In this document: piece by piece, positions 810 to 33,396 of the stretch | Layout: every line of letters starts with the position of its first letter | Numbering within the stretch: position 1 is the first letter of the stretch | Virus record (IMG/VR): IMGVR_UViG_3300046048_000769 | Strand: one strand, 5' to 3' | DNA length: 36,343 bases | Source: a virus | The notes under the pieces: generated by a model | Told to the model about the DNA's origin: nothing | Databases searched by the model: none | The model's input: only the letters and a program-made list of their open reading frames with translations | Program-made: the position numbers and the translations under genes

Positions 810-1442
810 CTAATACTGTTCGTCGTTAGGCATTTCCACCATCCAGTAGGCAGCACCCAAGAACTGCTCCCAGGACTTAATCCGGTAGTCGCCCTTGAGT
901 AAGTTGTGAGTCGGTCGCTTCGGCTTGCGGAGCAACTTCATCTTCGCTTCCTCTGGAGTACGGTCAGCCTTGTACGAGTTACATTCTACACAAGCCACAA
1001 CGCAGTTGTCGAATGTGGTCTTGCCGCCCTTGGACTTCGGCTGAACGTGGTCCAGCGTCAACTCCGAGGTCTTCGGCTTGCATCCACAATACTGACAAGT
1101 GTAATCGTCTCGCTTGTACAGCATCCTACGAGAGAAGTGTACCTTGTTGATCGGGTAGCCATCGTACTTCGACAGCACGATAACTTCTGGAACCCGAAAA
1201 ATCAGGTCCACACCCTTGAGGCCACGGGCATTCCCATTCTCATCTACTCGCGGACGCATTTCCGACCAATCGGACCACTCCATCATCTGGAAGGATTCGT
1301 CATCGCAGTTGATTACACGGGCTTTTGGCGTACCGCAAGGATACTCGCTGGCGACGAGTTTGATAGCTCGCTTGGCTGTGCAAACATGAATTGGTTGCCA
1401 GTTACGGTTCAACACCAATACCGGACTTGAAACTGCTGTCAT
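810..1442 (-). CDS. HNH homing-type endonuclease
   Basis: C-x2-C ... H-x-Q/N ... C-x2-C HNH core in the translation (CQYCGCKPKTSELTLDHVQPKSKGGKTTFDNCVVACVECN). Strong SD GGGAGG 9 nt upstream of ATG. Confidence 0.8.
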   Translation of the reverse strand: MTAVSSPVLVLNRNWQPIHVCTAKRAIKLVASEYPCGTPKARVINCDDESFQMMEWSDWSEMRPRVDENGNARGLKGVDLIFRVPEVIVLSKYDGYPINKVHFSRRMLYKRDDYTCQYCGCKPKTSELTLDHVQPKSKGGKTTFDNCVVACVECNSYKADRTPEEAKMKLLRKPKRPTHNLLKGDYRIKSWEQFLGAAYWMVEMPNDEQY

Positions 1443-2028: not shown

Positions 2029-2442
2029 CTATTTCCTCAGTAATTTCAGGTGTCCTGTGATCCTGTCAACGTCCTCAGCATAGTTAGGACCGATACCTAC
2101 GCATGTATTGGTCGGCCCGTCAAAGGTCGTTAGCCCGCTATCGGTAATCAGATGAGCCGTCAAACCCGCGTCCTTGGCCTGCTGATATACCTCCAGTAAC
2201 TCCTCCTCGGACTCCACTTTGAGGACCACCTTTTTGAAAATACCAAGAAGCCACGCGGCCATTTCGGGCGTAACTTCGATATTTGCGGAGTATGTCCCAT
2301 GAGGCGTTTCCGCCAACTTTTCACGGACGATATTACTCAAGCCAGCCAATGCCGCATGACCCGCCTGGGCCATTTTCTTCCCGACATTCGCTTCCTTGAG
2401 GTCATTTCGCCAAATGATGACCTGTTTTACCTCTCTGGACAT
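2029..2442 (-). CDS. pth2: peptidyl-tRNA hydrolase, PTH2 (archaeal/eukaryotic) family
   Basis: VIIWRNDLKEANVGKKMAQAGHAA...GLTAHLITDSGLTTFDGPTNTCVGIGP...ITGHLKLL aligns with conserved PTH2 blocks (human PTRH2: [23 protein letters not shown] ... GIGPGP...VTGHLKL). GGAGG SD. Confidence 0.85.
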   Translation of the reverse strand: MSREVKQVIIWRNDLKEANVGKKMAQAGHAALAGLSNIVREKLAETPHGTYSANIEVTPEMAAWLLGIFKKVVLKVESEEELLEVYQQAKDAGLTAHLITDSGLTTFDGPTNTCVGIGPNYAEDVDRITGHLKLLRK

Positions 2443-2490: not shown

Positions 2491-2733
2491 CTACCAGCTT
2501 TTGGAAGGCGTCCAAGAGTCGTCAATGGTGCGGTATTTCGAGGGAATCAACACGGGCACAGGCTCAATTTGACTGAAGCTGTCCAAAGGCATCGGAGGAC
2601 CAGTCACTATCAACTGCGGATAAATTCTTCTGATTAACGGAAGACTGATTCTTTTGAATTGGGCAGGGTCAGCCGATTTATTCTGATTTTCCAGAAGGGC
2701 CTTCACTATTTGTTCTTGTTTATTCATAAACAA
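2491..2733 (-). CDS. small protein with C-terminal KYRTIDDSWTPSKSW tag (W-tag family)
   Basis: ORF ends ...PSKYRTIDDSWTPSKSW*. Also shares an internal LPxIRRIYPxLI block with the adjacent paralog. Confidence 0.55.
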   Translation of the reverse strand: MFMNKQEQIVKALLENQNKSADPAQFKRISLPLIRRIYPQLIVTGPPMPLDSFSQIEPVPVLIPSKYRTIDDSWTPSKSW

Positions 2734-2963
2734 CTCGAAGGCGTCCAGGGATCATCAATCGACCGTCGTGTCGGTGGGACGAAAACATCAGGCACATCGA
2801 CAAAAACGTCAACCAACAGGGGCGGCGTTTTACTATTTGAAGAATAGCGATACTTCAAATAGTAAATCAAGCTCGCGGGCTGCGACAATGGTTGAACCGA
2901 TACGATGTTATTCGCAAGCAACGGCGGATATACCTTCCGCACGTTAGGCAACGTGATATTCAT
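2724..2963 (-). CDS. small protein with C-terminal RRSIDDPWTPSSCL tag (W-tag family, paralog of 2491..2733)
   Basis: ...PTRRSIDDPWTPSSCL*. The internal block LPNVRKVYPPLL matches LPLIRRIYPQLI of its neighbour. Confidence 0.55.
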   Translation of the reverse strand: MNITLPNVRKVYPPLLANNIVSVQPLSQPASLIYYLKYRYSSNSKTPPLLVDVFVDVPDVFVPPTRRSIDDPWTPSSCL

Positions 2964-2964
2964 G

Positions 2965-3306
2965 CTACATTTTACTTAACTCATCGAGGAAGTCTTGGTC
3001 GCACATGGCGGTTTCTTCCTCAATATCCTCATCCCTATATTTTTTACTCAGTGCCTCAAGCTGGCCGACAACGCGAACCTTAGAGGGCATCATCGAGTAA
3101 ATGGTGCCACAGCAAGTGGCTTGGCAAAAGCGATCATCGCCTTCAACACAATAGACTAATTTCCAATCAAGCGGAGCGGCACACTGAAAGCAAGAGCCGC
3201 GTTCCAGAAGTTCCTGGTAATCATACTCGCTCGATCCATGAGGGTTAACCTTGAGGCCCAAATCGACACCTTTATCACTCATCCTCGTTTCCCTGTTTAG
3301 GGCCAA
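2965..3306 (-). CDS. Cys-rich hypothetical protein
   Basis: ORF with CFQC...C-x-C/C-x2-C clusters and an acidic C-terminus. Confidence 0.45.
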   Translation of the reverse strand: MALNRETRMSDKGVDLGLKVNPHGSSEYDYQELLERGSCFQCAAPLDWKLVYCVEGDDRFCQATCCGTIYSMMPSKVRVVGQLEALSKKYRDEDIEEETAMCDQDFLDELSKM

Positions 3307-3522: not shown

Positions 3523-3780
3523 TCAGTCTTCCGCATTCTCTTCGGACTCGGTTTCACCTTTCCACTTCTTCCACCAAGTCTTCATGAATTGCATCGTGAG
3601 AAATGTAACAACAGCGTTGACAAGAGCTTTGGCAATCACATACAGCAGCGGGGCCGCTACCTCAATGTATTGTGCTTCAACTTCTTGTTGATCTTCTAGC
3701 TTTTCTTGCTTTTTATCATCAGTATCCAAAACCCCTCCTATTGGGAAATGCAGTGGAGCCGGTGGGAGTCGAACCCACAA
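3523..3780 (-). CDS. small membrane protein; N-terminus uncertain because it overlaps the tRNA 3' end
   Basis: ORF has a hydrophobic segment (AAPLLYVIAKALVNAVVTFLTMQF) and an acidic tail. The first 27 nt overlap the tRNA at 3754-3837. Confidence 0.3.
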   Translation of the reverse strand: MWVRLPPAPLHFPIGGVLDTDDKKQEKLEDQQEVEAQYIEVAAPLLYVIAKALVNAVVTFLTMQFMKTWWKKWKGETESEENAED

Positions 3781-3837
3781 TCTGGTATGGTCCTCACGGA
3801 TTTCAGCATACCTATTTTCCCATTAAACTACGGCCCC
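3754..3837 (-). tRNA. tRNA-Phe(GAA)-like with a 10-nt insertion in the anticodon loop (putative short intron)
   Basis: Manual fold of the revcomp: acceptor GGGGCCG/CGGCTCC (one G-U pair), D-loop AATGGGA, anticodon stem GGTATG/CATACC enclosing a 17-nt loop CTGAAAT-CCGTGAGGAC (canonical Phe loop CUGAAAU plus 10 extra nt), variable AGATT, T-arm GTGGG-TTCGACT-CCCAC, discriminator A. CCA is not encoded. Confidence 0.6.
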
Positions 3838-4188
3838 GATTTCTTCTCCCCATTGTCGATAAATCTCTTCCATCTTCGGAACACTCAAGCCAACAAATCC
3901 CATGTCCGGCTCGCCGTCTTGCCCTCCAATTCTGCTCAAGGCTTCCGAGTTCATTCGTTCAATAATGTGCTGTGGAGGATCAATCAACTTCGGTATTGCA
4001 TTGAAAGCAAAATGCACAGACTCAAAAGGCAAGTCTTGCATCAAGCGAAACAAGTGCGGAGCCGCTTCACTCCCCATTTCCAAGACAGCCCGATAATCCG
4101 GGTCATCATGCTTGTGAAAAGAGAAATGAGAATTTCTGTTGTGATAAGCCAAAACACGTTCTTTAACTTCGTCATACGTCACACTCAT
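3823..4188 (-). CDS. hypothetical protein (121 aa)
   Basis: ORF whose ATG overlaps the metG stop in an ATGA arrangement. Its TAA stop falls inside the tRNA D-loop. Confidence 0.5.
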   Translation of the reverse strand: MSVTYDEVKERVLAYHNRNSHFSFHKHDDPDYRAVLEMGSEAAPHLFRLMQDLPFESVHFAFNAIPKLIDPPQHIIERMNSEALSRIGGQDGEPDMGFVGLSVPKMEEIYRQWGEEIGAVV

Positions 4189-5864
4189 TTGTTGATCCTT
4201 GGAAACAAAGTTACTTTATCCAAAAGAATAACTGGACCATCCATATCCATGTGTTCCAAATCTTCATCGTGATACATTCTATTTAGATATTTCCAATCCA
4301 GTTTATCTTCGACCTGAGTGAGCGTCAGACTTGCATCATGGGTGAATGGGAAAAACGTCCGATAAATCGTCTCCGACGTTTGCGGCAAAAAAGGTTTCAA
4401 TAATACACTCACCAAACGCAAACAAGAAACGCAATTTCGCAAAACTACTGCCAACTTGGTTGCTTCCTGATCGTTGTTTGCAAGCTCCCAAGGTTTCATT
4501 TGTTCAACATATCCGTTGCAATTGTCCAGAAGCTCCCACACCATTTGTAAGGCATGATTGTATTCATAGGCTTCAACATGCAGCTTGTAACGATCCAGCC
4601 ACTCACTGCTGGCCCATGACACCTGTCCGCTCCTGGCATATGGATTTTCACTGTCGTTGAGTCGAATTTCCGTCCTGGGAATGTAGGGCAGCGACCTGTC
4701 AAAATACTTGGTAATCATCGCGTTTACGCGGCTCACCAAGTTACCCAGGTTATTGGCCAAATCAGCATTGTAAACATCAACAAAATGCTCATAGCTGAAT
4801 TCGCTATCGTCGTGATAACGACACTTGGCAAGAAAATAGTATCGGTAAGCATCGACTCCGAATTGTTCGACAATATCAGAGGGATTCACAAAGTTCCCAC
4901 TTTTGGCGATTTTCGCCAAATTATTGTCTTTTCGTTGATAGAGAAAGCCATGAGCGTAGATTTTACGCGGCAAATCAATGGCCGGACCATCATCGAAAGC
5001 GTCGTTGTAGGCCATAATCATGGCAGGAAAGATGATACAGTGAAAGCGGGTAATGTCTTTCCCGATCAAGTGGCAATCAGCAGGCCACCATTTTTTGAAT
5101 TTTTGATGATCGGCACCAAACCCAATGCCTGTCAAATAATTGAGCAATGCGTCAAACCAGACATAAATTACCTGAGAATCATCCCAAGGAATCGGAATTC
5201 CCCACCCCTGATTTGTGCGACTGATGGAAATATCTTCCAGAGGACCGTTCAGAACGCTCATAACCTCGTTGTAACGGCTTTCTGGCTCAATCGTGAGTTC
5301 TGATACGGATTTACCGTCCGGCCCTACACGACGATGCAGGAGCTTCAGAAGCTCTTCTCGGAATTCACTCAGAGCGAAGAAATAATTTTCTTCCTCAACC
5401 TGCTCAATTTGCAAATTCGGGTGATTTGGACATTTGCCGTTGGTGAGCGAGTTTGGAGTTTTGAACTCCTCACAACCGTTACAATAAAGGCCAACATAGG
5501 GTTTTTTGTAGATATACCCCGCTCGGTACACAGTTGAAATAAATTCGTTCACCCCTTGGTGATGACACGGCTCCGAAGTCTGAATGAAATCGTCGTTGGA
5601 AATATCCAACTGTTTCCACACTTCCTGAAATCGACGGGCCATATCGTTGACGTATTTCTGCGGTCCTCCCGATCCAGGCTTTGCCACGGCTGCTGCGACT
5701 ATTTTTTGAGTATTTTCGTCATTCCCCATCAAAAAATAGACATCATCCCCGCACATGCGGTGCCATCGAGCCTGCACATCAGCACCGAGTTTTTCAAAAG
5801 CGGTGCCAATATGCGGCAACGCATTTGGATAATCAATCGCACAAGTAATGTAAAACTTACTCAT
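4185..5864 (-). CDS. metG: methionyl-tRNA synthetase, core enzyme (no C-terminal dimerisation/tRNA-binding extension)
   Basis: Class I Rossmann N-terminus (YITCAIDYPNALPHIGTAFE), a Zn-knuckle C-x2-C...C-x-N-H insertion, a KIAKS (KMSKS-like) loop and an anticodon-binding helical domain. Length 559 aa. Confidence 0.9.
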   Translation of the reverse strand: MSKFYITCAIDYPNALPHIGTAFEKLGADVQARWHRMCGDDVYFLMGNDENTQKIVAAAVAKPGSGGPQKYVNDMARRFQEVWKQLDISNDDFIQTSEPCHHQGVNEFISTVYRAGYIYKKPYVGLYCNGCEEFKTPNSLTNGKCPNHPNLQIEQVEEENYFFALSEFREELLKLLHRRVGPDGKSVSELTIEPESRYNEVMSVLNGPLEDISISRTNQGWGIPIPWDDSQVIYVWFDALLNYLTGIGFGADHQKFKKWWPADCHLIGKDITRFHCIIFPAMIMAYNDAFDDGPAIDLPRKIYAHGFLYQRKDNNLAKIAKSGNFVNPSDIVEQFGVDAYRYYFLAKCRYHDDSEFSYEHFVDVYNADLANNLGNLVSRVNAMITKYFDRSLPYIPRTEIRLNDSENPYARSGQVSWASSEWLDRYKLHVEAYEYNHALQMVWELLDNCNGYVEQMKPWELANNDQEATKLAVVLRNCVSCLRLVSVLLKPFLPQTSETIYRTFFPFTHDASLTLTQVEDKLDWKYLNRMYHDEDLEHMDMDGPVILLDKVTLFPRINK

Positions 5865-5881
5865 CGGAACCCTACATAAAG

Positions 5882-6373
5882 GTGATGAAAACTTTCTGGC
5901 AATGGATCATGAACGAAGGCGGTCGCCGCACGGGAGCAAAGCTGTCTCTATACCCGCTTGCTTACGGCGATATTGGTTTGTACCCTCCGGGTGAATACAT
6001 CACTCATGGAGCAGATGCAATCTATTATCTCAGCCAAGAAGATCGTAAATATTACGGACAATCGGGGCCACCCTACAATGTTCTTCATTTGAAGGTAGAT
6101 TACCCTGAAAATGAACATCCATCATACAAATTACCGGCTGACACGTCTACACAGTTCAAGCCGATCATTATGCCGGATGACTCGACTCAGCCGAAGAAGA
6201 GATACTACACGCCAGATGATCTCGATCTAAACCAAGACCCAGGCAAGTGGGGCGAGAACAAGCGAATGCCTTCTGATGATCCTACCAACACATGGAAAAA
6301 TCTTGGGGCGGGTCGTGCTGGTACGCCCGGTGTACTCGTTGGAGACGATTCACCTGATCCAAAAGGTGGCTAA
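5882..6373 (+). CDS. Pro/Tyr-rich low-complexity protein (only plus-strand ORF with no competing minus ORF)
   Basis: 163-aa ORF with repeated YPPGEY / YY / P-D-D motifs. No long minus-strand ORF lies under it. The SD (AAGGTG) is poorly spaced. Confidence 0.35.
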   Translation: MMKTFWQWIMNEGGRRTGAKLSLYPLAYGDIGLYPPGEYITHGADAIYYLSQEDRKYYGQSGPPYNVLHLKVDYPENEHPSYKLPADTSTQFKPIIMPDDSTQPKKRYYTPDDLDLNQDPGKWGENKRMPSDDPTNTWKNLGAGRAGTPGVLVGDDSPDPKGG

Positions 6374-7089: not shown

Positions 7090-7437
7090 TCACTGACGAC
7101 CAAAATAGCCGGAATACAGGCCCTTTCTATCACCTGCGTCACGCGGCCCCGCGTTGCTAATACGCTCCGCGAATATGCACTGTTCGCCGACAAATGTCAA
7201 GTTAAATTCGCTTTCACAATTTTCACACATGACATTTTGCGACATGCCGCCAGAAGGCCCGGATAGCAACCCGCCCTGTTCACAATCAGGACAGGTCACA
7301 TACCCTTGGGCCAAACCACTGATGAAATGCCGTTCTTCCTCGGTCAATTTTTCGTGAGCCTCAGAAGAACGGTTGACGATACTACTCCCCATCGACCGAA
7401 GTCCTCGACAGAGTGTTACTGTTACGGTTGGTGCCAC
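7090..7437 (-). CDS. Zn-ribbon protein (CPDC ... CENC); true start probably the internal Met near 7392
   Basis: Two C-x2-C pairs. The annotated start overlaps the MVP 3' end by 55 nt. Confidence 0.45.
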   Translation of the reverse strand: MAPTVTVTLCRGLRSMGSSIVNRSSEAHEKLTEEERHFISGLAQGYVTCPDCEQGGLLSGPSGGMSQNVMCENCESEFNLTFVGEQCIFAERISNAGPRDAGDRKGLYSGYFGRQ

Positions 7438-15787: not shown

Positions 15788-16416
15788 AACAAAGCCTGCT
15801 CGCGGTCAGTTTGCTCTGCGGCTTCTTTTTTCTTGGCGGCTTCATTCATGACTTCAGACAGAGGTTCGCCGTCCTCGAAGTTTTCTGGAATGTATGCCTC
15901 CGGGGCATCGTTGGTTTTGGTGACAGTGCCTCTTTTTCCGAAGAGATCAAGCATCTTCTTCAGCATTGTGGCAATATATCTTTCCGTTTTCGGATGGAGA
16001 TATGTCTCAGGATTGCGAAAGAAAACGCTCTTGCCCTGCATACAGGCTTCACAACCCAAAACAATTATCCCCGCCATATGGCGTAGGCCCATGTCGCCCA
16101 TATTCAAAACTTCAATCGACTTGGGCGGATCAGTGCGGTCTGCTGGATCGAATGCCTCCTGCCATAAATGACGAAACAATTCTCCCTTGCTTATCCACTC
16201 CCATTGCTTCTGTGTCATTTCCGACATACATCGGATCGTATCCTGGGGATCAACCTCGACAAACTCAGGAACTTCTACTTTGAGTCCCTGCTGATGAACA
16301 ATGACACAAAAATTGGTTGCGTTCTCGATCTCATGCTCAGTCTTAACCGGCTCGTCGTCAACGATGTGTGTGGTTACGATTTTGGTCATCCGACAACTCC
16401 CTGACAACGCGAACAA
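15637..16416 (-). CDS. hypothetical protein with an ABC/AAA_21-like 'E-x-x-LHP' signature
   Basis: FFRNPETYLHP resembles the D-loop/His switch region of RecF/SMC/AAA_21-type ATPases. No clear Walker A was found. Confidence 0.45.
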   Translation of the reverse strand: MFALSGSCRMTKIVTTHIVDDEPVKTEHEIENATNFCVIVHQQGLKVEVPEFVEVDPQDTIRCMSEMTQKQWEWISKGELFRHLWQEAFDPADRTDPPKSIEVLNMGDMGLRHMAGIIVLGCEACMQGKSVFFRNPETYLHPKTERYIATMLKKMLDLFGKRGTVTKTNDAPEAYIPENFEDGEPLSEVMNEAAKKKEAAEQTDREQALFWLQCMEPEKAIVQLNGERLTVGRITEEVNNNTDIGRWFIDQYVRLRDGS

Positions 16417-19235
16417 AGCTCTCTAGTCTCAACAGTTCGCTTCCAACAACGCTGACACTTAGCCTGACTGCTCAATACGATCTTGAATTGATCTCCCTGA
16501 ACGTCGAAAGTGGTCAACGCCTCCTGTTGAGTTGAAGGCTGATATTTGCTCACGCCGAACCAATCCTCAACACCAAAAAACGTCTTGCCGTTTGACTCAA
16601 CAAACACGTCCAATTTATCGCTGACTTTCTTGTCTTTTTTCAAGAGATCGAAGGCCACGTTAAACGAGTCCAGAGCTTCCTGCCAATAGTCAATATCGTC
16701 TGCCAAGACATGCGGGGTGGACGCAACAACCTGCAAAGGCTGATAAACGAGGTCAAAAATATCTGGCGATTTCGGCTGCAATCCAATCACATCCAACACA
16801 AACCAATAGGGACAATGACCCAAAACTTCTGCTGCTGTATAGGTAAACAATGGAGCGACCAACCCCAACATCGAACGCAGCAATTGAAACACCGTATACT
16901 GTGCGGAATTTCGTTCTTTTCGATTGCCGCAATAGAGACGGTCCTTAGCAGCACTCATCCAGATACCACTCAACTCGGCATGAATGAAATCATTCAGCAT
17001 GTGTGTGCCACGACAGAAGTCGTATTCGGCATACAAACGATGAATATCGCCAAAGACTTCGCTGGCTTTGCTCAGAATCCAAAAATCAATCGGCATCAGG
17101 TCTTCTTGCCGAACCGTGTCGTGAGCCTTTGTCCGCAAAGAAAGATTTCTTTCACTGTCCAAATTGGCAACTAAATAACGCAACGTATTTCGCAGCTTCC
17201 GATACCCCTCTGAGCAACGCTTGAGAATTGGATCGCTCAATCGCATTTCACGGGTGTAATCCGTCGTTGCCACCCAATAACGAAGAACCTCTGCTCCATA
17301 TTGCTTCAATACGGTTTCAGGTGATACGACGTTGCCTTTTGACTTCGCCATCTTTTCGCCCTTCTCATCCACCACGAATCCGTGGCTGATGATCTTCTTG
17401 AAGGGTGCCTCTTTGCTGATCGCCAGTCCAAGCCACAACGAACTCTGAAACCAGCCGCGATGTTGATCGCTACCTTCGCAGTACACGTCCGCAGGTCGTG
17501 TTGTGAGCGAATCAATGAAGCTCCAACTCAATCCGCTGTCGAACCAGACATCGAGGATGTCTTCAACCTTCTCGAAGTCATCTGGCTTGTACTTGTAGTG
17601 TTCCGGCAAAAAGCTCTCGACGGGAAGCTCCCACCAGCGTTCTGTATCATTGTGGATTTGAGCGGAAGTCGCCGCCAAAATATCCTCGAAGAACCATGCT
17701 CGCCCCGTCTTCTTGTGACGGAGAAAAGCAATCGGCACACCCCACGCTCGTTGACGACTGATACACCAGTCTTCGCGGTCCTTCACCATCGCCATCAAGC
17801 GGTTCTTCGCCACTTCTGGAACGAAGGTCGTATTCTCCACAGCATCAATTGCAGCGGGACGCAGCGGCTCCAGGTCTACATACCATTGATCCGTGGCACG
17901 AAAAATAACAGGCGTGCCCGAACGCCAACAATGAGGATAACTGTGAGTGATTTTCTCTTTCAGCAATAAGTTGCCATAATTCCTCAATGACTCGATGACA
18001 AATTCGTTGCCGAATTTCAGCACATGCTGACCGTCAATAATGCCACCGGGCATAGGCGTATGTTGACGGCCAAGGGCGACATAGACTTCTTGAGTCCAGT
18101 TGCCTCGCTCATCAACAGGTTGATACACCGGCAAATTGTGCTTCTGACCAACTTGGTAGTCGATAACACCGTGACCTGGGGCGATGTGTACGCAACCCGT
18201 ACCAGTGTGCATGTCTACAAAATCTTCGCAGATTACCGGCACGTTCATATTATGAGCGAGGGGCTTAACACATTGGGTTACTCCGTCCGCTAATTCGCTC
18301 CCCATGACAGTAGCAAACACATCCTTGGCGATGCCTTTTTCCACCATCGCATCAAAGCGTTTTTTTGCCATAAAAACCAACGGCAAAGGCAAGGCTCCAT
18401 GCGGGTGATTCAATACGTTGACTTCAACGGAACACCAACACGCGACATATTCTTCGTCAGGATGAATTGCGACAGCAGCGTTCGACGGCAATGTCCAGGG
18501 TGTAGTTGTCCAAACCAACAATGCAGCTTTAGATTCCCCGTTACGATATGCCGTCCACATATCATGCTCATCAGGAATGATCTTATTCCACAGGCTGGAG
18601 TCCAACTTGATCTCGAACGCCACGTAGACAGCATCGTCTTCCCTATCTTTGTATTCAATCTCGGCTTCGGCCAAAGCGGTCTGCTCGGCCCAGGACCAAT
18701 ACACAGGCTTCTGCCGTTGAAACAGCAAGTGATCCGCAGCCAGTTGACGCAGAGCGTCAAAGATACGCGACTCATTTTGGGGAGCCATCGTGGTATAGGG
18801 ATGATCCCAATCAGCGATGACGCCCAGGGTCTTAAACTCTTCGCGTTGAATATCAAGCTGCTGCTGTGCATACTCGCGGCACTTACGACGAGTGGTCACT
18901 CGATCATCGGATACATCGCGGGCCTTCTTCTCGATAGGCAGACCATGACAGTCCCAACCAGGGACAAATTCCACAGATTGACCGCTGAAGTAGTGCTGCT
19001 TGACAATGAAATCCTTGAGAATTTTGTTCATCGCGTGGCCGATATGAATCGACCCATTTGCATACGGAGGCCCATCATGCAAAACGAAATCAGGGTCATG
19101 GTGCCTCTGACGCCGCATTCTTCTGTATACGCCCCCGTTATTCCACAAAGCATAAACTTCCGGCTCACTGGCCGGAAGATTTGCCTTGATGGGCATATCA
19201 GTTTTGGGTAGTTTTAGTGTCTCTTTGAAACTCAT
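16386..19235 (-). CDS. ileS: isoleucyl-tRNA synthetase (bacterial type, Zn-binding C-terminus)
   Basis: HIGH (PPYANGSIHIGHAMN), KMSKS (KMAKSKGNV), the CP1 editing insertion, and C-terminal C-x2-C...C-x2-C (CQRCWKR...CSRCQ). 949 aa. GAGG SD. Confidence 0.9.
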   Translation of the reverse strand: MSFKETLKLPKTDMPIKANLPASEPEVYALWNNGGVYRRMRRQRHHDPDFVLHDGPPYANGSIHIGHAMNKILKDFIVKQHYFSGQSVEFVPGWDCHGLPIEKKARDVSDDRVTTRRKCREYAQQQLDIQREEFKTLGVIADWDHPYTTMAPQNESRIFDALRQLAADHLLFQRQKPVYWSWAEQTALAEAEIEYKDREDDAVYVAFEIKLDSSLWNKIIPDEHDMWTAYRNGESKAALLVWTTTPWTLPSNAAVAIHPDEEYVACWCSVEVNVLNHPHGALPLPLVFMAKKRFDAMVEKGIAKDVFATVMGSELADGVTQCVKPLAHNMNVPVICEDFVDMHTGTGCVHIAPGHGVIDYQVGQKHNLPVYQPVDERGNWTQEVYVALGRQHTPMPGGIIDGQHVLKFGNEFVIESLRNYGNLLLKEKITHSYPHCWRSGTPVIFRATDQWYVDLEPLRPAAIDAVENTTFVPEVAKNRLMAMVKDREDWCISRQRAWGVPIAFLRHKKTGRAWFFEDILAATSAQIHNDTERWWELPVESFLPEHYKYKPDDFEKVEDILDVWFDSGLSWSFIDSLTTRPADVYCEGSDQHRGWFQSSLWLGLAISKEAPFKKIISHGFVVDEKGEKMAKSKGNVVSPETVLKQYGAEVLRYWVATTDYTREMRLSDPILKRCSEGYRKLRNTLRYLVANLDSERNLSLRTKAHDTVRQEDLMPIDFWILSKASEVFGDIHRLYAEYDFCRGTHMLNDFIHAELSGIWMSAAKDRLYCGNRKERNSAQYTVFQLLRSMLGLVAPLFTYTAAEVLGHCPYWFVLDVIGLQPKSPDIFDLVYQPLQVVASTPHVLADDIDYWQEALDSFNVAFDLLKKDKKVSDKLDVFVESNGKTFFGVEDWFGVSKYQPSTQQEALTTFDVQGDQFKIVLSSQAKCQRCWKRTVETRELCSRCQGVVG

Positions 19236-23217: not shown

Positions 23218-23658
23218 TTATTTTATCCTTCTGTATCGTTTGGGAAGTGCTTTTTTCTTGGCCGCTTTCTTAGGAGTTGCTTTCTTGGCGGGAACTTTCT
23301 TGGCTGTCTTTTCACGCGGAAGACTCATGATTTTTGTGGTGAAATCCATTGAGTGTGGATCGACATATTGACTGTCTATCAACTTCCAGCCGTGATCGCG
23401 GAAATGTTTGACCCAACTCTCTAAGTTTCCCATTCCCTCCCCGCACCTGAATGTCTTCATGCGACAAGTGATACAATCATCTAGCTCTCGAACGAATATC
23501 TCCTTTATTTCGTCCTTTTGATATTCGTGAGGATGCACAGACGATGGGCCTACATAGAGCGTCAATCCCTCCCAGGGCTGATAGAAGATTTCAGTTATCT
23601 TAATGAACCAATAGGTTTCATCAAAATAATCGAACCGCTTTATGAACTTACACTTCAT
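23218..23658 (-). CDS. protein with histone-H1-like Lys/Ala/Pro-rich C-terminal tail
   Basis: C-terminus KTAKKVPAKKATPKKAAKKKALPKRYRRIK. N-terminal globular part has C-x2-C. Confidence 0.5.
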   Translation of the reverse strand: MKCKFIKRFDYFDETYWFIKITEIFYQPWEGLTLYVGPSSVHPHEYQKDEIKEIFVRELDDCITCRMKTFRCGEGMGNLESWVKHFRDHGWKLIDSQYVDPHSMDFTTKIMSLPREKTAKKVPAKKATPKKAAKKKALPKRYRRIK

Positions 23659-24848
23659 GACATTCTCTCAAAGGAAAAGTTCCCTTCGACAGCCAGTTTT
23701 TGTTGCAGCCCATACATATCGAGCATTTCCTGCTTGCCGCGTCGATCCCTGATGTTCATGCCGCCATTGGCCAACTCCTTATCGCCAACCACCAACATAT
23801 ATGGGATTTTTTGCTCAGTTGCAAGTGCGATCTTATGTGGAAGAGTATTATTGGACCTGTCGATTTCAACACGAAAATGGCGACTGAGATATTCGTGATA
23901 ATACTCAACAGCTTGGTGGTGTCGATCAGCAATTGGCAGCAAAACCATTTGCACCGGAGCCAACCAGAATGGAAGTTCTCCTTGGTAGTGTTCCAACAAA
24001 ATGGCGATGAACCGCTCGAAGCTACCATAGAACGCCCGATGGATCACAATGGGCATCTGGTCCACGTCGTTGGAATCTGCATATTTCAGATTAAACCTCT
24101 GAGGCAGTTGAAAATCAAGTTGAATAGTAGCTGTTTGCCATTCTCTGTCCAAGGAGTCTTTGACCATAAAGTCGATCTTAGGTCCGTAGAAAGCCCCCTT
24201 GCCTTCGTCGATCTCAAACGACAGCGATCCCATGTTCAAGACAGACTTCAAAGCATCCTCAGCCTGATTCCAGGCTTTCGCTACTCCCATGAATTTCTCT
24301 GGTCTAGTTGACAGCACAGCACGAAGCGACATCCCGAACGCTCGATACACATCCCCCACCATTCCAACAAGCTCAAAGGCTTCTTTCGCAATGGCATCTG
24401 GCTCTGAAGGGATGAAGCAATGGGCGTCGTCCTGGCAAAAAGATCGACAGCGAGTCAGCCCGCCAATCGCACCAGACACTTCGTTACGATGCAACACGCC
24501 TTGATCGTGAATACGATATGGCAGGTCACGATAGCTCCACTGTTTGGCAGCGAAGATGGTCATGTGAGCAGGACAATTCATCGGCTTGAGGGCATACTCT
24601 TCATCGCCAATGATGAACATATTTTCTTTGTAATGATCCCAATGACCCGAAGTTTTGAACAACTCCGGCTTATAGAGAAGCGGAGTTCTGACCTCGACGT
24701 ACCCATTTTTCAGATTGTATTGCCTGATTTTTTCGCTGAGGAGCGAATAGACCGTGTTTCCGTGCGGCAACCAAATAGGGCAGCCCGGCGAAACCGGACT
24801 GAACATAAACAAATCAAGCTGCTGTCCAATTTCTCTGTGATCTTTCAT
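23655..24848 (-). CDS. thrS: threonyl-tRNA synthetase, catalytic plus anticodon-binding domains only (no N-terminal TGS/editing domains)
   Basis: Starts DHREIGQQLDLF (equivalent to ~residue 240 of bacterial ThrRS), has class II motifs 1-3 (FRAE-like HRNEVSG..., GSFERF) and a C-terminal anticodon-binding domain. 397 aa versus ~640 aa for full-length enzymes. Confidence 0.85.
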   Translation of the reverse strand: MKDHREIGQQLDLFMFSPVSPGCPIWLPHGNTVYSLLSEKIRQYNLKNGYVEVRTPLLYKPELFKTSGHWDHYKENMFIIGDEEYALKPMNCPAHMTIFAAKQWSYRDLPYRIHDQGVLHRNEVSGAIGGLTRCRSFCQDDAHCFIPSEPDAIAKEAFELVGMVGDVYRAFGMSLRAVLSTRPEKFMGVAKAWNQAEDALKSVLNMGSLSFEIDEGKGAFYGPKIDFMVKDSLDREWQTATIQLDFQLPQRFNLKYADSNDVDQMPIVIHRAFYGSFERFIAILLEHYQGELPFWLAPVQMVLLPIADRHHQAVEYYHEYLSRHFRVEIDRSNNTLPHKIALATEQKIPYMLVVGDKELANGGMNIRDRRGKQEMLDMYGLQQKLAVEGNFSFERMS

Positions 24849-29393: not shown

Positions 29394-29621
29394 CTAAAGC
29401 CAAGTTTCAATGATGTTGGGATCGTCTTCCGGGTGACGATCCATCCTGTGCAATCCCGGTGGAAGTTGACGACGAATATCATCCAACGAATCCCCGGTGA
29501 AATGGTCCTCGGTGATAGTCACCGTGCCTGGACCAATTTCGTTTCTCCTACAAACAAAGACACCAGGGAAATCCCTGGTGCCAGTGCCGAAAACGACCCA
29601 TATATCGAGTTTGCCGCTCAT
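29394..29621 (-). CDS. small hypothetical protein
   Basis: ORF whose start overlaps the frr stop. Confidence 0.4.
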   Translation of the reverse strand: MSGKLDIWVVFGTGTRDFPGVFVCRRNEIGPGTVTITEDHFTGDSLDDIRRQLPPGLHRMDRHPEDDPNIIETWL

Positions 29622-30199
29622 TTCATTCTCTCGATTTTAGCTGCGATAATGTTGTCGATTTCTTGAATGTACTTGTCGGTCATCTTCTGCAAATCATCTT
29701 CCATACGACGAAGTTCGTCTTCACTGAGAAAAGTATCTTTTTTGAACTGCTGCCGAAACTTCTTGCGAACATTTCTGACAGCGACCTTAGCTTCTTCTCC
29801 CAATGCTGAAAGTCGTGCGACCACCTTTTGACGATCCTCTCCACATGGAGGCGGAACGCTGACGACGACTTCGGTTTTTGAAAATACAAATGCCTCAAAA
29901 CCTGCTGCCTTGAGTCCTTTCTCAATGGCAAACCTATTCTGAGCATCGTGTGGCTCAATCCGAATTCGTCCGCCCTGCTTTGACGTTTGGGCAAGGTGCC
30001 CAATCGGCATTGGCTGACCATAACACACAACTCTCACGGAGTCGATCACAGCAGAAGTAATCAATCCGTGTCTGATGCCGACCAATTGGTCCGACAGAAA
30101 ATCAAGAGACTTTTCCATCAAGTCTCTTGGTTCCTTCAAATTATCCCCAGGTACACATTCCAGTTTCCTCCGTTTAGTTCGAGAATTAGTAAGACCCAT
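29618..30199 (-). CDS. frr: ribosome recycling factor
   Basis: EEAKVAVRNVRKKFRQQFKK...LSEDELRRMEDDLQKMTDKYIQEIDNIIAAKIERM aligns with the RRF C-terminal helix bundle (VAVRNVRRDANDK...ISEDD.RR.QDDVQKLTD). The N-terminal arm resembles the RRF beta-domain. Confidence 0.8.
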   Translation of the reverse strand: MGLTNSRTKRRKLECVPGDNLKEPRDLMEKSLDFLSDQLVGIRHGLITSAVIDSVRVVCYGQPMPIGHLAQTSKQGGRIRIEPHDAQNRFAIEKGLKAAGFEAFVFSKTEVVVSVPPPCGEDRQKVVARLSALGEEAKVAVRNVRKKFRQQFKKDTFLSEDELRRMEDDLQKMTDKYIQEIDNIIAAKIERMK

Positions 30200-31710: not shown

Positions 31711-32031
31711 CTACAAACCAGCTAAGGAAAGAAGTAGGTTACACACAAAGTAAACGAACAAAACAAACATCAAACCCACCCAAAACACGCTTTTGGTTTT
31801 GGTGCGTTCGATGAACTCAACAGCCCTTGTGACTTGATTGGTATCCAAGCCCTGGGTGCCAATGATGTAACTAACCTGGGTATCAGATACTTCTTCACTG
31901 CATATGCGTGCAGCTAAGTTGATAACCTCATCTGGCAGAGCCAGAAATTCGGCTTTGGTCATCTTCCCACTTGGATTGCTTCCACTCACTGTCGATATTC
32001 CTCCTTGAAGGCAGGGTAAAATTGAGTTCAA
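31711..32031 (-). CDS. hypothetical protein with C-terminal TM anchor
   Basis: C-terminal VFWVGLMFVLFVYFVCNLLLSLAGL. Confidence 0.45.
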   Translation of the reverse strand: MNSILPCLQGGISTVSGSNPSGKMTKAEFLALPDEVINLAARICSEEVSDTQVSYIIGTQGLDTNQVTRAVEFIERTKTKSVFWVGLMFVLFVYFVCNLLLSLAGL

Positions 32032-32064
32032 TCCACTCGACTTTAATCGGCAGGCATATGTCCA

Positions 32065-32128
32065 GTGTTATTCTGTCCGGTATTCCCGCACTGGAAATCG
32101 TGATTTTGTCGGGAATCCCCGTGTCCAT
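32065..32128. repeat. two degenerate ~34-bp direct repeats (TYTGTCSGGWATYCCCGYRYT cores at 32071-32094 and 32105-32128)
   Basis: Seen directly. The second copy shares the 9-mer TCGGGAATC with the T-arm-like copies in the adjacent tRNA-like element. Confidence 0.35.
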
Positions 32129-32156
32129 ACTCTACTCCGAAAATAACCCGTTGCAA

Positions 32157-32273
32157 AGTTGACGGAGGGAATCGAACCCACCCTTGCCTGCGGACCTGGA
32201 ACCATCCATTTCGGGAATCGAACCCGACTGGCCTCCCTCTCCGGGAGCCGTGCGACCACTACACTACGTCAAC
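32157..32273 (-). tRNA. degenerate tRNA-like element with an internally duplicated T-arm (possible pseudo-tRNA or tRNA with non-canonical insertion)
   Basis: Revcomp: acceptor GTTGACG ... CGTCAAC (perfect 7 bp), D-arm GTGT-AGTGGTC-GCAC, no canonical 7-nt anticodon loop (CTCCC-GGAGA-GGGAG hairpin instead). Two T-arm-like copies (TCGGG-TTCGATT-CCCGA and GTGGG-TTCGATT-CCCTC) lie 46 nt apart. Confidence 0.35.
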
Positions 32274-32587
32274 ATCGAAGGCGACCATTCCGAATCAATA
32301 TCTCTCTTGGGAAATTCGACCAGAACGTGTCCTTCAAGCCAACAACGAAGTTCATCATTGAATTCAGCCACGCAATTATACGCCCCTGATACGTTCGTTT
32401 CTTTCAGTTCTCGATTGAACGGATATTTCCGCCACAAAATATCCAAATGATAAAACAAATCTCCAGGTGGTATCTGCTGAAACGGAACGCCATTCTTGGG
32501 CGATTCCTCTTTCCACGGCAATTTGGACCTGCCGAAAATATCAACTCTTGATGGAATCTTGCCGCGATTCTGTCCACTCATCGTCAA
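32264..32587 (-). CDS. W-tag family small protein (C-terminal ...KRDIDSEWSPSMLT)
   Basis: ORF. Motif lies at the C-terminus. Confidence 0.5.
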   Translation of the reverse strand: MTMSGQNRGKIPSRVDIFGRSKLPWKEESPKNGVPFQQIPPGDLFYHLDILWRKYPFNRELKETNVSGAYNCVAEFNDELRCWLEGHVLVEFPKRDIDSEWSPSMLT

Positions 32588-32822
32588 TACACCTGTACTT
32601 GGGTCGCGGCCCCATAAGCTCTTTCATACGATCCAGTGCTTCTACGCCCGCTGTATCAAAAAAGCAATTGGCCATGATGTCGTCTGATTTAGCCATGATA
32701 GCATCGACTATTTTCTTGTGCATAGCAGGACCAACGCTCAATATTCTTGGCTCGTATCCCCCTTTTCCATCGCTGACGTTGCAGTTGAACAAGTATCGCT
32801 TGTGGCCTGAAGGATTTTCCAT
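32541..32822 (-). CDS. W-tag family small protein (C-terminal ...KYRCIDDEWTESRQDSIKS)
   Basis: ORF. KYR-x-IDD-x-WT-x-S is identical in pattern to the 2491..2733 tail. Confidence 0.5.
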   Translation of the reverse strand: MENPSGHKRYLFNCNVSDGKGGYEPRILSVGPAMHKKIVDAIMAKSDDIMANCFFDTAGVEALDRMKELMGPRPKYRCIDDEWTESRQDSIKS

Positions 32823-33079
32823 TCTTTGAACTCCTTTTTGTCCTGCTCGTCAACCAGCCACTCTTTGTAATAATGATGTAATCTCGAACCCAAAAAAGCA
32901 ATAATAGCAGTTGTGGAAACGATAATCGCCATAGTCTGATCTCGCCAACAAGTGGCAGCGATGAACATGCTGCCCAAGACCAACCCTAAACAGCGAGTGA
33001 CAAATATATCAGAAAAAACAAATTTAAGTATGTTCATCATAATCTCCCGCTGTGGTAATCGCTCCATTGTGCTTCCCAA
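32738..33079 (-). CDS. small membrane protein (2 TM)
   Basis: Hydrophobic segments. Overlaps the next ORF start, so the boundaries are uncertain. Confidence 0.4.
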   Translation of the reverse strand: MGSTMERLPQREIMMNILKFVFSDIFVTRCLGLVLGSMFIAATCWRDQTMAIIVSTTAIIAFLGSRLHHYYKEWLVDEQDKKEFKEWKILQATSDTCSTATSAMEKGDTSQEY

Positions 33080-33396
33080 AAATCATGATGATCTTCGGCA
33101 CAAGCTCTGCACAAAAAAACAGAACGATTCGGATTTTCACCTTTACCGTCCCAATGATACATCGTTCGTGAATCTTCTAACTCGACGCCTTCTTTGTTGC
33201 CACACCTTTCACAAACATTTGGGTCCATGTCATGAACCATATGCTCGATGCTACCCTTGGAAGGCTCCCATTCTTCATCAATAGATCGAATTCTTTTACT
33301 TGGTTTGTGACGATCAGAATCAGTTAAAGGTCGGCTTCCGACGACTTTTGACCTGATTCCTCGTCCTGACTTTGCTGCCATTTCGATGGCTCCCAT
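33037..33396 (-). CDS. W-tag motif (RIRSIDEEWEPSKGS) followed in frame by a Zn-ribbon domain (CERC ... CRAC)
   Basis: ORF. Here the motif lies N-terminal to the Cys-rich domain, and the ORF's 5' end overlaps the preceding ORF's 3' end in another frame. Confidence 0.4.
   Translation of the reverse strand: MGAIEMAAKSGRGIRSKVVGSRPLTDSDRHKPSKRIRSIDEEWEPSKGSIEHMVHDMDPNVCERCGNKEGVELEDSRTMYHWDGKGENPNRSVFLCRACAEDHHDFWEAQWSDYHSGRL

Follow-up and report, generated by a model that had tools for sequence, protein, structure and literature searches.

The sequence analysed here (the window) is IMG/VR virus record IMGVR_UViG_3300046048_000769, a gene-dense stretch of 36,343 nucleotides (nt) with nearly all genes on the minus strand. 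Two short minus-strand open reading frames (ORFs) of the ORF list, ORF-A (2724-2963, 79 amino acids (aa)) and ORF-B (2491-2727, 78 aa from its ATG; P0003, a JGI gene call), occupy a slot whose downstream neighbour is the gene of the peptidyl-tRNA hydrolase PTH2 (2029-2442, minus strand; Pfam PF01981, 4.1e-29). Each carries near its C-terminus a motif located by motif scan and called here the W-tag, RRSIDDPWTPS in ORF-A (2736-2768) and YRTIDDSWTPS in ORF-B (2503-2535). Each also contains an upstream block, called here the N-block, which reads TLPNVRKVYPPLLANNIVSVQPLSQPASLIYYLKYRYSSNS in ORF-A (2832-2954, from capsid-protein alignment) and is partial, FKRISLPLIRRIYPQLIV, in ORF-B (2605-2658, from alignment with orthologs); the shared blocks LPNVRKVYPPLL and LPLIRRIYPQLI were both found in the ORF pair. 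The proteins begin with MNITLPNV (ORF-A) and MNKQEQIV (ORF-B). The TGA of ORF-A overlaps the ATG of ORF-B in the sequence ATGA, a TTG at 2733 being an alternative ORF-B start that would give 80 aa, and a single nucleotide separates the stop of the upstream gene from the ATG of ORF-A. Between ORF-B and PTH2 lies a 48-nt spacer with GGAGG. Together, ORF-A and ORF-B make up a pair of capsid-fragment minigenes that is old and translationally coupled. Each minigene has three parts: a copy of the best-conserved N-terminal block of a T4-type major capsid protein (MCP), a short variable linker and a linear motif of ~10 residues.

Profile searches and alignments identify the internal block as the conserved N-terminal block of the T4-type MCP. 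ORF-A matches Pfam Gp23 (PF07068) with E 5.6e-10 and 39.6 bits (gathering threshold 24.4), its residues 5-44 aligning with positions 9-48 of the 376 in the profile, and phrog_138 (major head protein) with 1.2e-9; for ORF-B the phrog_138 match has E 0.037. Orthologs of both ORFs in a related 346-kb contig (L001, GCA_013328955.1) have precomputed PF07068 matches. Compared with a full-length 474-aa huge-phage MCP, ORF-A corresponds to residues 62-102 (63% identity) and ORF-B to residues 39-75 (59% identity), the latter taking in the LLENQ of the cleaved delta-domain. ORF-B is made up of a delta-domain remnant (LLENQ), the partial N-block and the W-tag. The ORF-A-family profile A2 aligns with residues 97-134 of T4 gp23 in solved structures. 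The sequence-only reading had rightly seen a block common to both ORFs but had overlooked that it is the N-terminal block of a T4-type MCP, so that its ‘tagged gene’ is a capsid-protein fragment. A complete HK97-type fold, with E-loop, P- and A-domains and about 450-520 aa, is absent from products of 78-79 aa, and AlphaFold2 (AF2) gave no fold for ORF-A (38-sequence alignment; pLDDT 64.6, pTM 0.22). ORF-A and ORF-B are therefore fragments and not capsid proteins. An exact-sequence look-up of ORF-A returned no recorded match.

The two minigenes are paralogs. Plain BLASTP of ORF-A against ORF-B aligned the tag alone (E 2e-4), which, taken literally, would confine their similarity to the tag and speak against the duplication that the sequence-only reading had proposed; BLASTP is, however, insensitive on short sequences, and profile-profile alignment of the two families (hhalign; 98.9% probability, E 1.4e-17, 59 columns) extends the similarity from the N-block to the tag, spanning ORF-A residues 2-77. 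A four-way alignment of the window pair with the L001 orthologs shows the shared pattern I[ST][IL]P.[IV][RK][RK][IV]YP.L[IM]AN.I.SVQP ... PVP.L.P..R[ST]IDD.W. The pair thus shares both an internal block and the tag, as had been claimed, with the amendment that about 10 block residues (ANSILSVQPM) after the partial N-block are gone from window ORF-B and kept in its ortholog. Of the proposed tandem duplication of a tagged gene, the paralogy stands, but the pair is old and is not a simple fixed one, the content of the slot varying among contigs.

Comparison of the window with L001 bears on selection. Synonymous sites are saturated, the proportion of synonymous differences (pS) being 0.59-0.81 (0.6-1.0 overall), whereas the nonsynonymous proportion (pN) is 0.18-0.29. 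For the ORF-A N-block, pN is 0.20 and pS 0.74; for its tag RRSIDDPW there are 0 nonsynonymous (pN 0.00) and about 6 synonymous differences, all six synonymous sites being changed relative to the ortholog. In ORF-B, the tag has pN 0.10 and pS 0.69 (dN/dS ~0.06), and the N-block has dN/dS ~0.09. Conservation of the tag as protein, for which a dN/dS comparison of tag and body had been suggested as a check, is thus borne out by pN values of 0.00 and 0.10 over saturated synonymous sites. Strong purifying selection thus acts, at the protein level, on both the N-block and the tag, and the minigenes are real, old and selected as proteins.

The W-tag recurs throughout the window. Its general form is [aromatic or R]-R-x-I-D-D-x-W-x-x-S, examples being KKYRSIDDPWEQS, and the phage's own version is PTRRSIDDPWTPS. 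In the six-frame translation of the window, R.ID..W..S is found 10 times and only on the minus (coding) strand, the number expected per shuffle being 0.08. Eight of them belong to a main cluster of eight W-tagged minus-strand ORFs (31928-35562, motif scan) with tags at 31973-32002, 32276-32305, 32565-32594, 33259-33288, 33384-33413, 33538-33567, 34872-34901 and 35341-35370. The earlier claim that the tag is kept in both copies and extends beyond one locus accordingly holds, with these eight further copies at 31,973-35,370, ~30 kb away. An eleventh copy, the short form FRSIDDQ-stop, ends a 152-aa minus-strand protein with a hydrophobic N-terminus and a heptad-like, coiled-coil-looking body (1566-2024), the orthologs of which end in FRSIDDE (L001), QWRSIDDK (L114) and HRSIDDE (L115); a short tag of the form [W/F/H/R]R.IDD(x)-COOH terminates several unrelated proteins at these loci. 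Altogether, at least nine small proteins of the window phage besides ORF-A and ORF-B carry the W-tag.

The codons for R (CGN/AGR), I, D and S vary among tag copies, so it is as protein that the motif is conserved. These synonymous differences, including CGN versus AGR, rule out a repeat at the level of DNA or RNA (promoter, ribosome-binding site or mobile-element end) as the origin of the tag. The W-tag has the traits of a short linear docking motif: it is short, conserved at the protein level, portable and set in an unstructured context. Homology to the capsid DNPW segment (T4 gp23 STDNPWNEM) is unsupported, since huge-phage MCPs of the cognate type read NKDMPEINL, without W, at this place, and a resemblance to a chromodomain strand (YLVRWKGYDSEDDTWEPEQ) was not significant (E 0.68). 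The window has 0 sites for the T4 late promoter (TATAAATA), and scans for sigma-70 promoters and terminators gave nothing informative.

Several tagged ORFs, here and in related phages, are likewise pieces of conserved phage proteins. Their capsid-derived segments correspond to MCP residues 38-103, 223-306, 248-313, 312-364, 390-444 and 428-469, of which 223-306 and 248-313 lie in the spine-helix region; the variable insertion domain (about residues 105-222) is the source of no mapped fragment. In the window, a 166-aa minus-strand ORF of the main cluster (34860-35360; tag VRNIDQPWEQS at 34872-34901) is a capsid C-terminal fragment, its residues 82-111 corresponding to capsid protein residues 430-459 (E 2.5e-5). 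Contig L100, where an untagged delta-domain fragment (MCP residues 3-48) also exists, has a true MCP gene and two fragment genes 4 kb apart; its tagged fragment is only 58% identical to the MCP of its own genome, which excludes recent gene conversion. Not all cargo is capsid-derived. A 93-aa minus-strand ORF (32541-32822, YRCIDDEWTES) resembles a fragment of the gp32-type single-stranded-DNA-binding protein (SSB) (phrog_1192 E 0.1, profile 118-160), and its L098 homolog, with an N-terminal tag, gives 3.8e-5 with phrog_1192 and 0.013 with Pfam gp32. One tagged protein is a head-maturation-protease domain with the tag at its C-terminus (phrog_207 2.2e-15, Pfam S77 0.004), which by eye seems to be without the catalytic His and Ser. 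A 124-aa tagged protein of the window is predicted by AF2 to form a folded domain (pTM 0.73) with the tag as a low-confidence tail; close homologs keep the tag and distant ones do not have it, and Foldseek against the PDB gave no significant match. Most other tagged ORFs remain orphans in Pfam and PHROGs scans. Taken together, the tag is a portable, lineage-specific add-on, and its cargo is enriched in conserved head-protein blocks.

Some further tagged proteins may be mentioned here. In a 119-aa minus-strand ORF (33037-33396), the tag (RSIDEEWEPS) belongs to the N-terminal half, and a conserved zinc-ribbon-like domain (phrog_12292, 1e-18) comes after it; 73 nt of this ORF are shared, in a different frame, with the preceding tagged ORF. 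The W-tagged cargo of contigs L122 and L126 (a 156-aa ORF) and of L091, L105 and L120 includes one protein in which ..VDGLQRLSA.. recalls ParB or DGQHR-type domains, with no Pfam match, and others that are low-complexity and rich in N, W, P and G (..NSWGNTPSGGWPRLDNPYVP..).

The slot next to PTH2 is conserved in position and variable in content. N-block minigenes lie directly upstream of PTH2 in 5/5 related contigs (the window, L001, L004, L114 and L115), always inside a conserved MetRS ... PTH2 ... HNH ... RF region. L001 carries orthologs of both ORFs in the same order and surroundings: P0001 is 67% identical to ORF-A, and P0002 (90 aa) corresponds to ORF-B with the full block and a Pfam Gp23 match. 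Two N-block genes are present in the window and L001 and one in L114, L004 has one N-block gene and one unrelated tagged gene, and L115 has three tagged genes. An HNH endonuclease gene lies close to the minigenes in the window (810-1442), as also in L109. Directly upstream of the slot in the window, L001 and L114 is a conserved 113-aa cysteine-rich, zinc-ribbon-like protein (window 2965-3306, minus strand), for which neither a tag nor a family match was found.

The window pair is part of a large class of minigenes. Well over 100 small proteins were recovered by a profile search; they measure 58-130 aa, many are encoded on contigs of 70-670 kb, and they have a common layout: an optional LLENQ..NE segment, then FKRISIPLVRRIYPQLIANKIVSVQPLLGPTGLVYYLRYRYS, an often lysine-rich linker and a terminal motif. 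At E<=1e-3 an exhaustive profile search of representatives gave 2659 clusters, of which 178 reached E<=1e-10; the top 150 are mostly short. The terminal motif is not always the same. Among 136 small N-block proteins, 64 carry the W-tag ([YWF]R.I[DTSE][DE]P[WF]E.[SQ], with the isoleucine 7-16 residues from the C-terminus), 16 terminate in KV[DN]W.KEGF-COOH, four have RW[KR]VQ[DN]RW and three K[TP]Y.EW; none of the four tags was found in the other 49, some of which are contig-edge MCP fragments. In P0068 and P0079 the W-tag precedes the N-block, and the two modules are therefore independent. The lineage with the EGF-type tag has tandem clusters of MCP fragments, every one ending in KV[DN]WxKEGF-COOH. 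The [LM]-x-N-E motif of the presumed MCP maturation site is kept in many ORF-B-type members, and there are N-block minigenes that start with MKTY[NT]EW, N-termini resembling the T4 capsid targeting sequence (CTS) being found on P0062 and P0128. On the 2.7-kb contig L118 (positions 273-958 and 2246-2674), three successive small ORFs carry MKTYNEW, MKTFKEW and MMTFREW, the first two at the start codon and the third internally, with two upstream Met codons. The first of these ORFs is an N-block minigene that also ends in LRPYSEWRNENI, and L118 has in addition a W-tagged ORF (..YRSVDDQW..) and a ClpS gene.

A scan of IMG/VR with back-translated YRSIDDPW found 16 loci, with 10 exact-pattern matches on one contig of 532,729 bp; back-translated YRSIDDPW(E) gave 24 loci altogether, and the back-translated flavour WRDITEPWEP gave 0 matches in that database. 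Among 50,697 GenBank phage records, tblastn with the minigene detected no separate minigene: each of the 943 matching records (943/943) was hit at exactly one place, which was the true capsid gene in every match listed, and this indicates that a separate minigene is absent from those records. Megablast of 25 kb of the window against the same 50,697 records found no match. In the 595-kb LR756511.1 the capsid gene is present, and no tags lie within 20 kb on either side of it. The literature searched held no mention of the tag strings. Tagged capsid-fragment clusters do occur on L120 (CAVSYW010000005.1, 933,350 bp) and L119/L121 (JAYVUD01), which are binned as Acidobacteriaceae and Chloracidobacterium metagenome-assembled genomes; these contigs either hint at a host among Acidobacteriota or represent a mis-binned, exceptionally large phage genome. 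Overall, tagged protein fragments are widespread in uncultured huge phages, and we found no description of them.

Among the closest known systems, the internal proteins of T4 offer a parallel in organization. These proteins are diverse, share the CTS alone and are delivered by it into the scaffolding core (PMC3012670); the experimentally defined CTS is MKTYQEFIAE (PMC8442874). Like IPI, IPII and IPIII, the W-tagged proteins are diverse, mostly small, linked by a common short terminal peptide and encoded, in a phage with a T4-type head, outside the head cluster, and in related contigs MKT[YF]xEW is the start of some N-block minigenes and of ORFs beside them. The W-tag differs from the CTS in sequence, in its usual place at the C-terminus and in that no I/L-x-E cleavage site adjoins it; its cargo comes largely, as fragments, from conserved proteins of the phage itself, and this is not known for the T4 internal proteins. 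ORF-A and ORF-B themselves are without an N-terminal CTS and gp21 cleavage site, their shared motif being C-terminal. A 162-aa plus-strand ORF of the window (5885-6373) starts with MKTFWQWIMNE, and its L001 and L114 orthologs with MKTFWQW[LV][IV]NE. With its close likeness to MKTYQEFIAE, including an I/V-x-E-type end, this ORF is a candidate CTS-bearing internal protein.

T4 gp67 provides a second parallel, as a small essential core protein of the head that mimics part of the capsid protein. Residues 2-48 of gp67 (80 aa) align with the gp23 delta-domain at 35% identity (E 0.002, the database being one sequence), as far as the cleavage motif FL[IT]E[GA]E that both have. In the same T4 region (L117, NC_000866.4 102781-106510), gp22 residues 191-246 also weakly align to the gp23 delta-domain (E 0.002-0.003, single sequence). 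The motif for maturation cleavage, which reads FLIEGE in gp67, FVTEA in gp22 and FLTEAE in gp23, lies at or close to the end of both the gp67 and the gp22 match. By contrast with the minigenes, gp67 resembles the cleaved delta-domain and not the mature N-block, its gene lies between those of the portal and the protease, and it has an acidic tail and no W-tag. The minigene slot lies between the zinc-ribbon-like gene and PTH2, the products have no acidic tail, and only ORF-B retains a delta-domain remnant; no sequence homology between gp67 and ORF-A or ORF-B was detected.

The N-block also invites comparison with Gol, a 29-residue segment in the first quarter of T4 gp23 and the most conserved one of that protein, which binds domains II/III of EF-Tu and licenses cleavage by Lit (PMC3014915). 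The minigene N-block, which aligns with gp23 residues 97-134, likewise corresponds to a conserved stretch of the first gp23 quarter. Gol presumably covers about gp23 residues 93-122, in which case it would overlap the N-block. Gol is, however, part of the full-length capsid protein, whereas the minigene is a separate gene. C-terminal capsid-binding tails are found on the HK97 protease, the herpesvirus scaffold and protease, and the 80alpha scaffold and CpmB. Similar to these are the cargo-loading peptides of encapsulins, which are short, mostly C-terminal, present on unrelated cargo and bind the inner face of an HK97-fold shell (PMC8346489). The W-tagged prohead-protease-like domain with its C-terminal tag fits this arrangement, but the tag has no sequence similarity to known loading peptides, and the scaffold and active protease of L100 are without it. 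Family 4 A-domain encapsulins are free-standing genes of ~100 aa encoding part of an HK97-type capsid protein (PMC8346489). They differ in being folded A-domains paired with enzymes in Archaea and Bacteroidetes, whereas the minigenes supply blocks of 25-85 residues that are predicted to be unfolded and bear an address tag. A family of precursors of ribosomally synthesized and post-translationally modified peptides was rejected, as the scanned neighbours gave no maturase-type Pfam matches and the ‘cores’ are conserved structural-protein blocks or folded domains. None of these closest known systems joins self-derived capsid fragments to a portable address tag; the minigenes are terminal-tag-addressed small phage proteins with unusual, unexplained cargo.

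We tentatively favour, at somewhat less than even chances, the view that the W-tag is a head-addressing signal by which peptides are loaded into the assembling prohead. The minigene products would then be unstructured two-ended adaptors: the tag would dock the product to a common partner, and the capsid-derived segment would engage whatever usually binds that segment in the real MCP. The tag may be analogous to the T4 CTS or to the tails by which scaffolds and proteases, at their C-termini, bind the capsid, and the loaded peptides might act as core components of the gp67 type or as internal proteins, contacting the shell or being packaged and then ejected. A role in the head is favoured because these phages have a T4-type head module (gp23-type MCP, gp21-type protease and scaffold) and because in T4 otherwise diverse internal proteins have the CTS alone in common, by which they are loaded into the core. 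It is further favoured by the MKTYNEW/MKTYTEW starts of some N-block minigenes, with MKTFKEW and MMTFREW on their L118 neighbours, by the resemblance of gp67 to the gp23 delta-domain, and by the protease-like tagged cargo together with the [LM]-x-N-E motif kept in many ORF-B-type members.

Several observations weigh against a head-addressing role. Packaging and the partner of the tag are both conjectural. The minigenes sit among translation genes (MetRS, PTH2, RF, SmpB, RRF), outside the head module. A tag common to the C-termini of scaffold and protease was rejected for L100, where the scaffold and the active protease both end without it. The W-tag, unlike the T4 CTS, is mostly C-terminal and has no consistent adjoining protease site. 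Nor would cargo such as an SSB fragment, zinc-ribbon-like proteins and the protein that begins with a hydrophobic stretch be predicted from a role in the head. Moreover, CTS-like N-termini and W-tags occur in the same genomes (window ORF 5885-6373; L118), which implies that the W-tag is a separate signal and not simply the replacement of the CTS in this lineage. If the minigene products are nonetheless addressed to the head, T4-type heads would have a second, C-terminal targeting code and a new class of core or internal components built from pieces of the capsid protein. This would bear on the nucleation and sizing of capsids for 300-900 kb of DNA and would provide a ready-made cargo-loading tag.

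Much of the same evidence can be read in other ways. It is possible, though we consider it unlikely, that the products act in the cytoplasm as immune decoys or bait-and-tag adaptors, the fragments mimicking short, conserved stretches of abundant proteins of the phage (capsid protein, SSB and protease) that are recognised by host sensors; the tag would, on the same doubtful premise, deliver the captured sensor to one shared partner, of phage or host origin, that inhibits, sequesters or degrades it. Such a function would account for the retention of conserved parent-protein blocks alone, with nothing taken from the variable insertion domain, and for the choice of the most conserved gp23 region, which in T4 is the EF-Tu-binding, Lit-sensed Gol peptide (PMC3014915). 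Capsid proteins are frequent triggers of defence, their short motifs being sensed by Lit and CapRel (PMC13581612), the locus lies amid translation-rescue genes (PTH2, RF, SmpB, RRF), and the tags are lineage-specific, as co-evolution would make them. A free Gol-like peptide would, however, be expected to activate a Lit-type sensor and not to block it, the analysis identified neither a candidate receptor for the tag nor an effector, the CTS-like variants of the same minigene point toward the head, the idea has no experimental precedent, and the tag strings are missing from the literature searched. In a broader version, which we hold to be rather improbable, huge phages would carry a bait-and-tag library of dozens of minigenes, each combining one conserved block of a core protein of the phage itself (capsid protein, prohead protease or SSB) with a lineage-specific tag. 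Any binder of a block, be it a host sensor (Lit, CapRel or Avs type), EF-Tu or a chaperone, would be caught and passed on to one and the same tag receptor, a step to which we give little credence. The whole could conceivably, at a similarly low likelihood, form a general, programmable anti-sensing (or assembly-control) system made from self-mimicking peptides. Were the products cytoplasmic baits, they would constitute the first virus-encoded library of self-derived peptide mimics that blunts innate sensing of conserved proteins.

Another explanation, with only a minor share of our confidence, has the tag serve generically to dock proteins onto a different hub; this could be a clamp-like factor, a chaperone or, with the tag working for instance as a degron, a protease adaptor. 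Capsid fragments would be just one class of cargo, serving perhaps, and this is again a long way from probable, as assembly inhibitors, holdases or dominant-negative peptides against competing phages. The diversity of the cargo and the short form [W/F/H/R]-R-x-I-D-D-COOH on unrelated proteins are consistent with a generic hub, and so is the likeness of the tag to short linear motifs in its small size, its place close to a terminus where structure is absent or of low confidence, and its gain and loss among homologs. A generic hub leaves unexplained, though, why such a large part of the cargo derives from the head and why a CTS-like motif appears on the same N-block elsewhere, and the tag is not known to match any clamp, SSB-tail or ssrA-type consensus. 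A regulatory nascent peptide that tunes coupled downstream genes, such as PTH2, by stalling or drop-off in the ribosome is very improbable. The tight ATGA overlap, the conserved position of PTH2 downstream and the tag isoleucine 7-16 residues before the stop, within the length of the exit tunnel, agree with it, and the aromatic-x-x-x-D spacing of the tag is loosely reminiscent of TnaC. A TnaC-like arrest peptide was rejected, nevertheless, because the distance from tag to stop codon ranges from 4 to 29 residues and because the tag also occurs at N-terminal or internal positions (ORF 33037-33396, P0068, P0079 and the L098 homolog); its presence on full-size folded proteins and the capsid-fragment cargo do not fit a nascent peptide either. 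That the minigenes are non-functional debris, pieces of the capsid gene scattered by homing endonucleases or recombination and open by chance, is to be regarded as extremely improbable. HNH genes do lie near the minigenes, the T4 homing endonuclease gene segD abuts gene 23, and ORF-B has a 10-aa deletion. However, the frames are intact in five contigs of independent assemblies and their ends are conserved; saturated synonymous sites, low pN and an invariant tag contradict neutral evolution; the 58% identity of the L100 fragment to its own MCP leaves no room for recent gene conversion; and the architecture recurs with different tags.

Whether the minigene products are addressed to the head, as we tentatively favour, or act as baits, several hundred database clusters labelled ‘Gp23’ or ‘hypothetical’ are mis-described, and surveys that count PF07068 as a capsid marker will over-count in these phages.

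A 913-aa minus-strand protein also encoded in the window (7382-10123) matches the shoulder domain of the major vault protein (PF11978, 1.3e-23) and, weakly, the vault repeat. It is kept in L001 and L114 and could conceivably be a cage-forming partner of the tag; a search of IMG/VR relatives for co-occurrence of the tag and this protein gave no confirmed match and was uninformative. The translation genes of the window, an unusually rich set for 36 kb and all on the minus strand, comprise SmpB (14802-15257), RRF (29618-30199), class I (16386-19235) and class II (23655-24848) aminoacyl-tRNA synthetases, MetRS (4185-5864; assigned from precomputed Pfam matches of the syntenic L001 ortholog) and PTH2. 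Two tRNAs were found in the window overall. One is a tRNA-Arg(TCT) at 34588-34662, and the other, of 85 nt on the minus strand (3753-3837; Rfam 49 bits), is assigned a 4-base anticodon ‘gaaa’ by ARAGORN, its fold being suggestive of GAA (Phe) in an anticodon loop that either has ~10 nt inserted or is 8 nt long.

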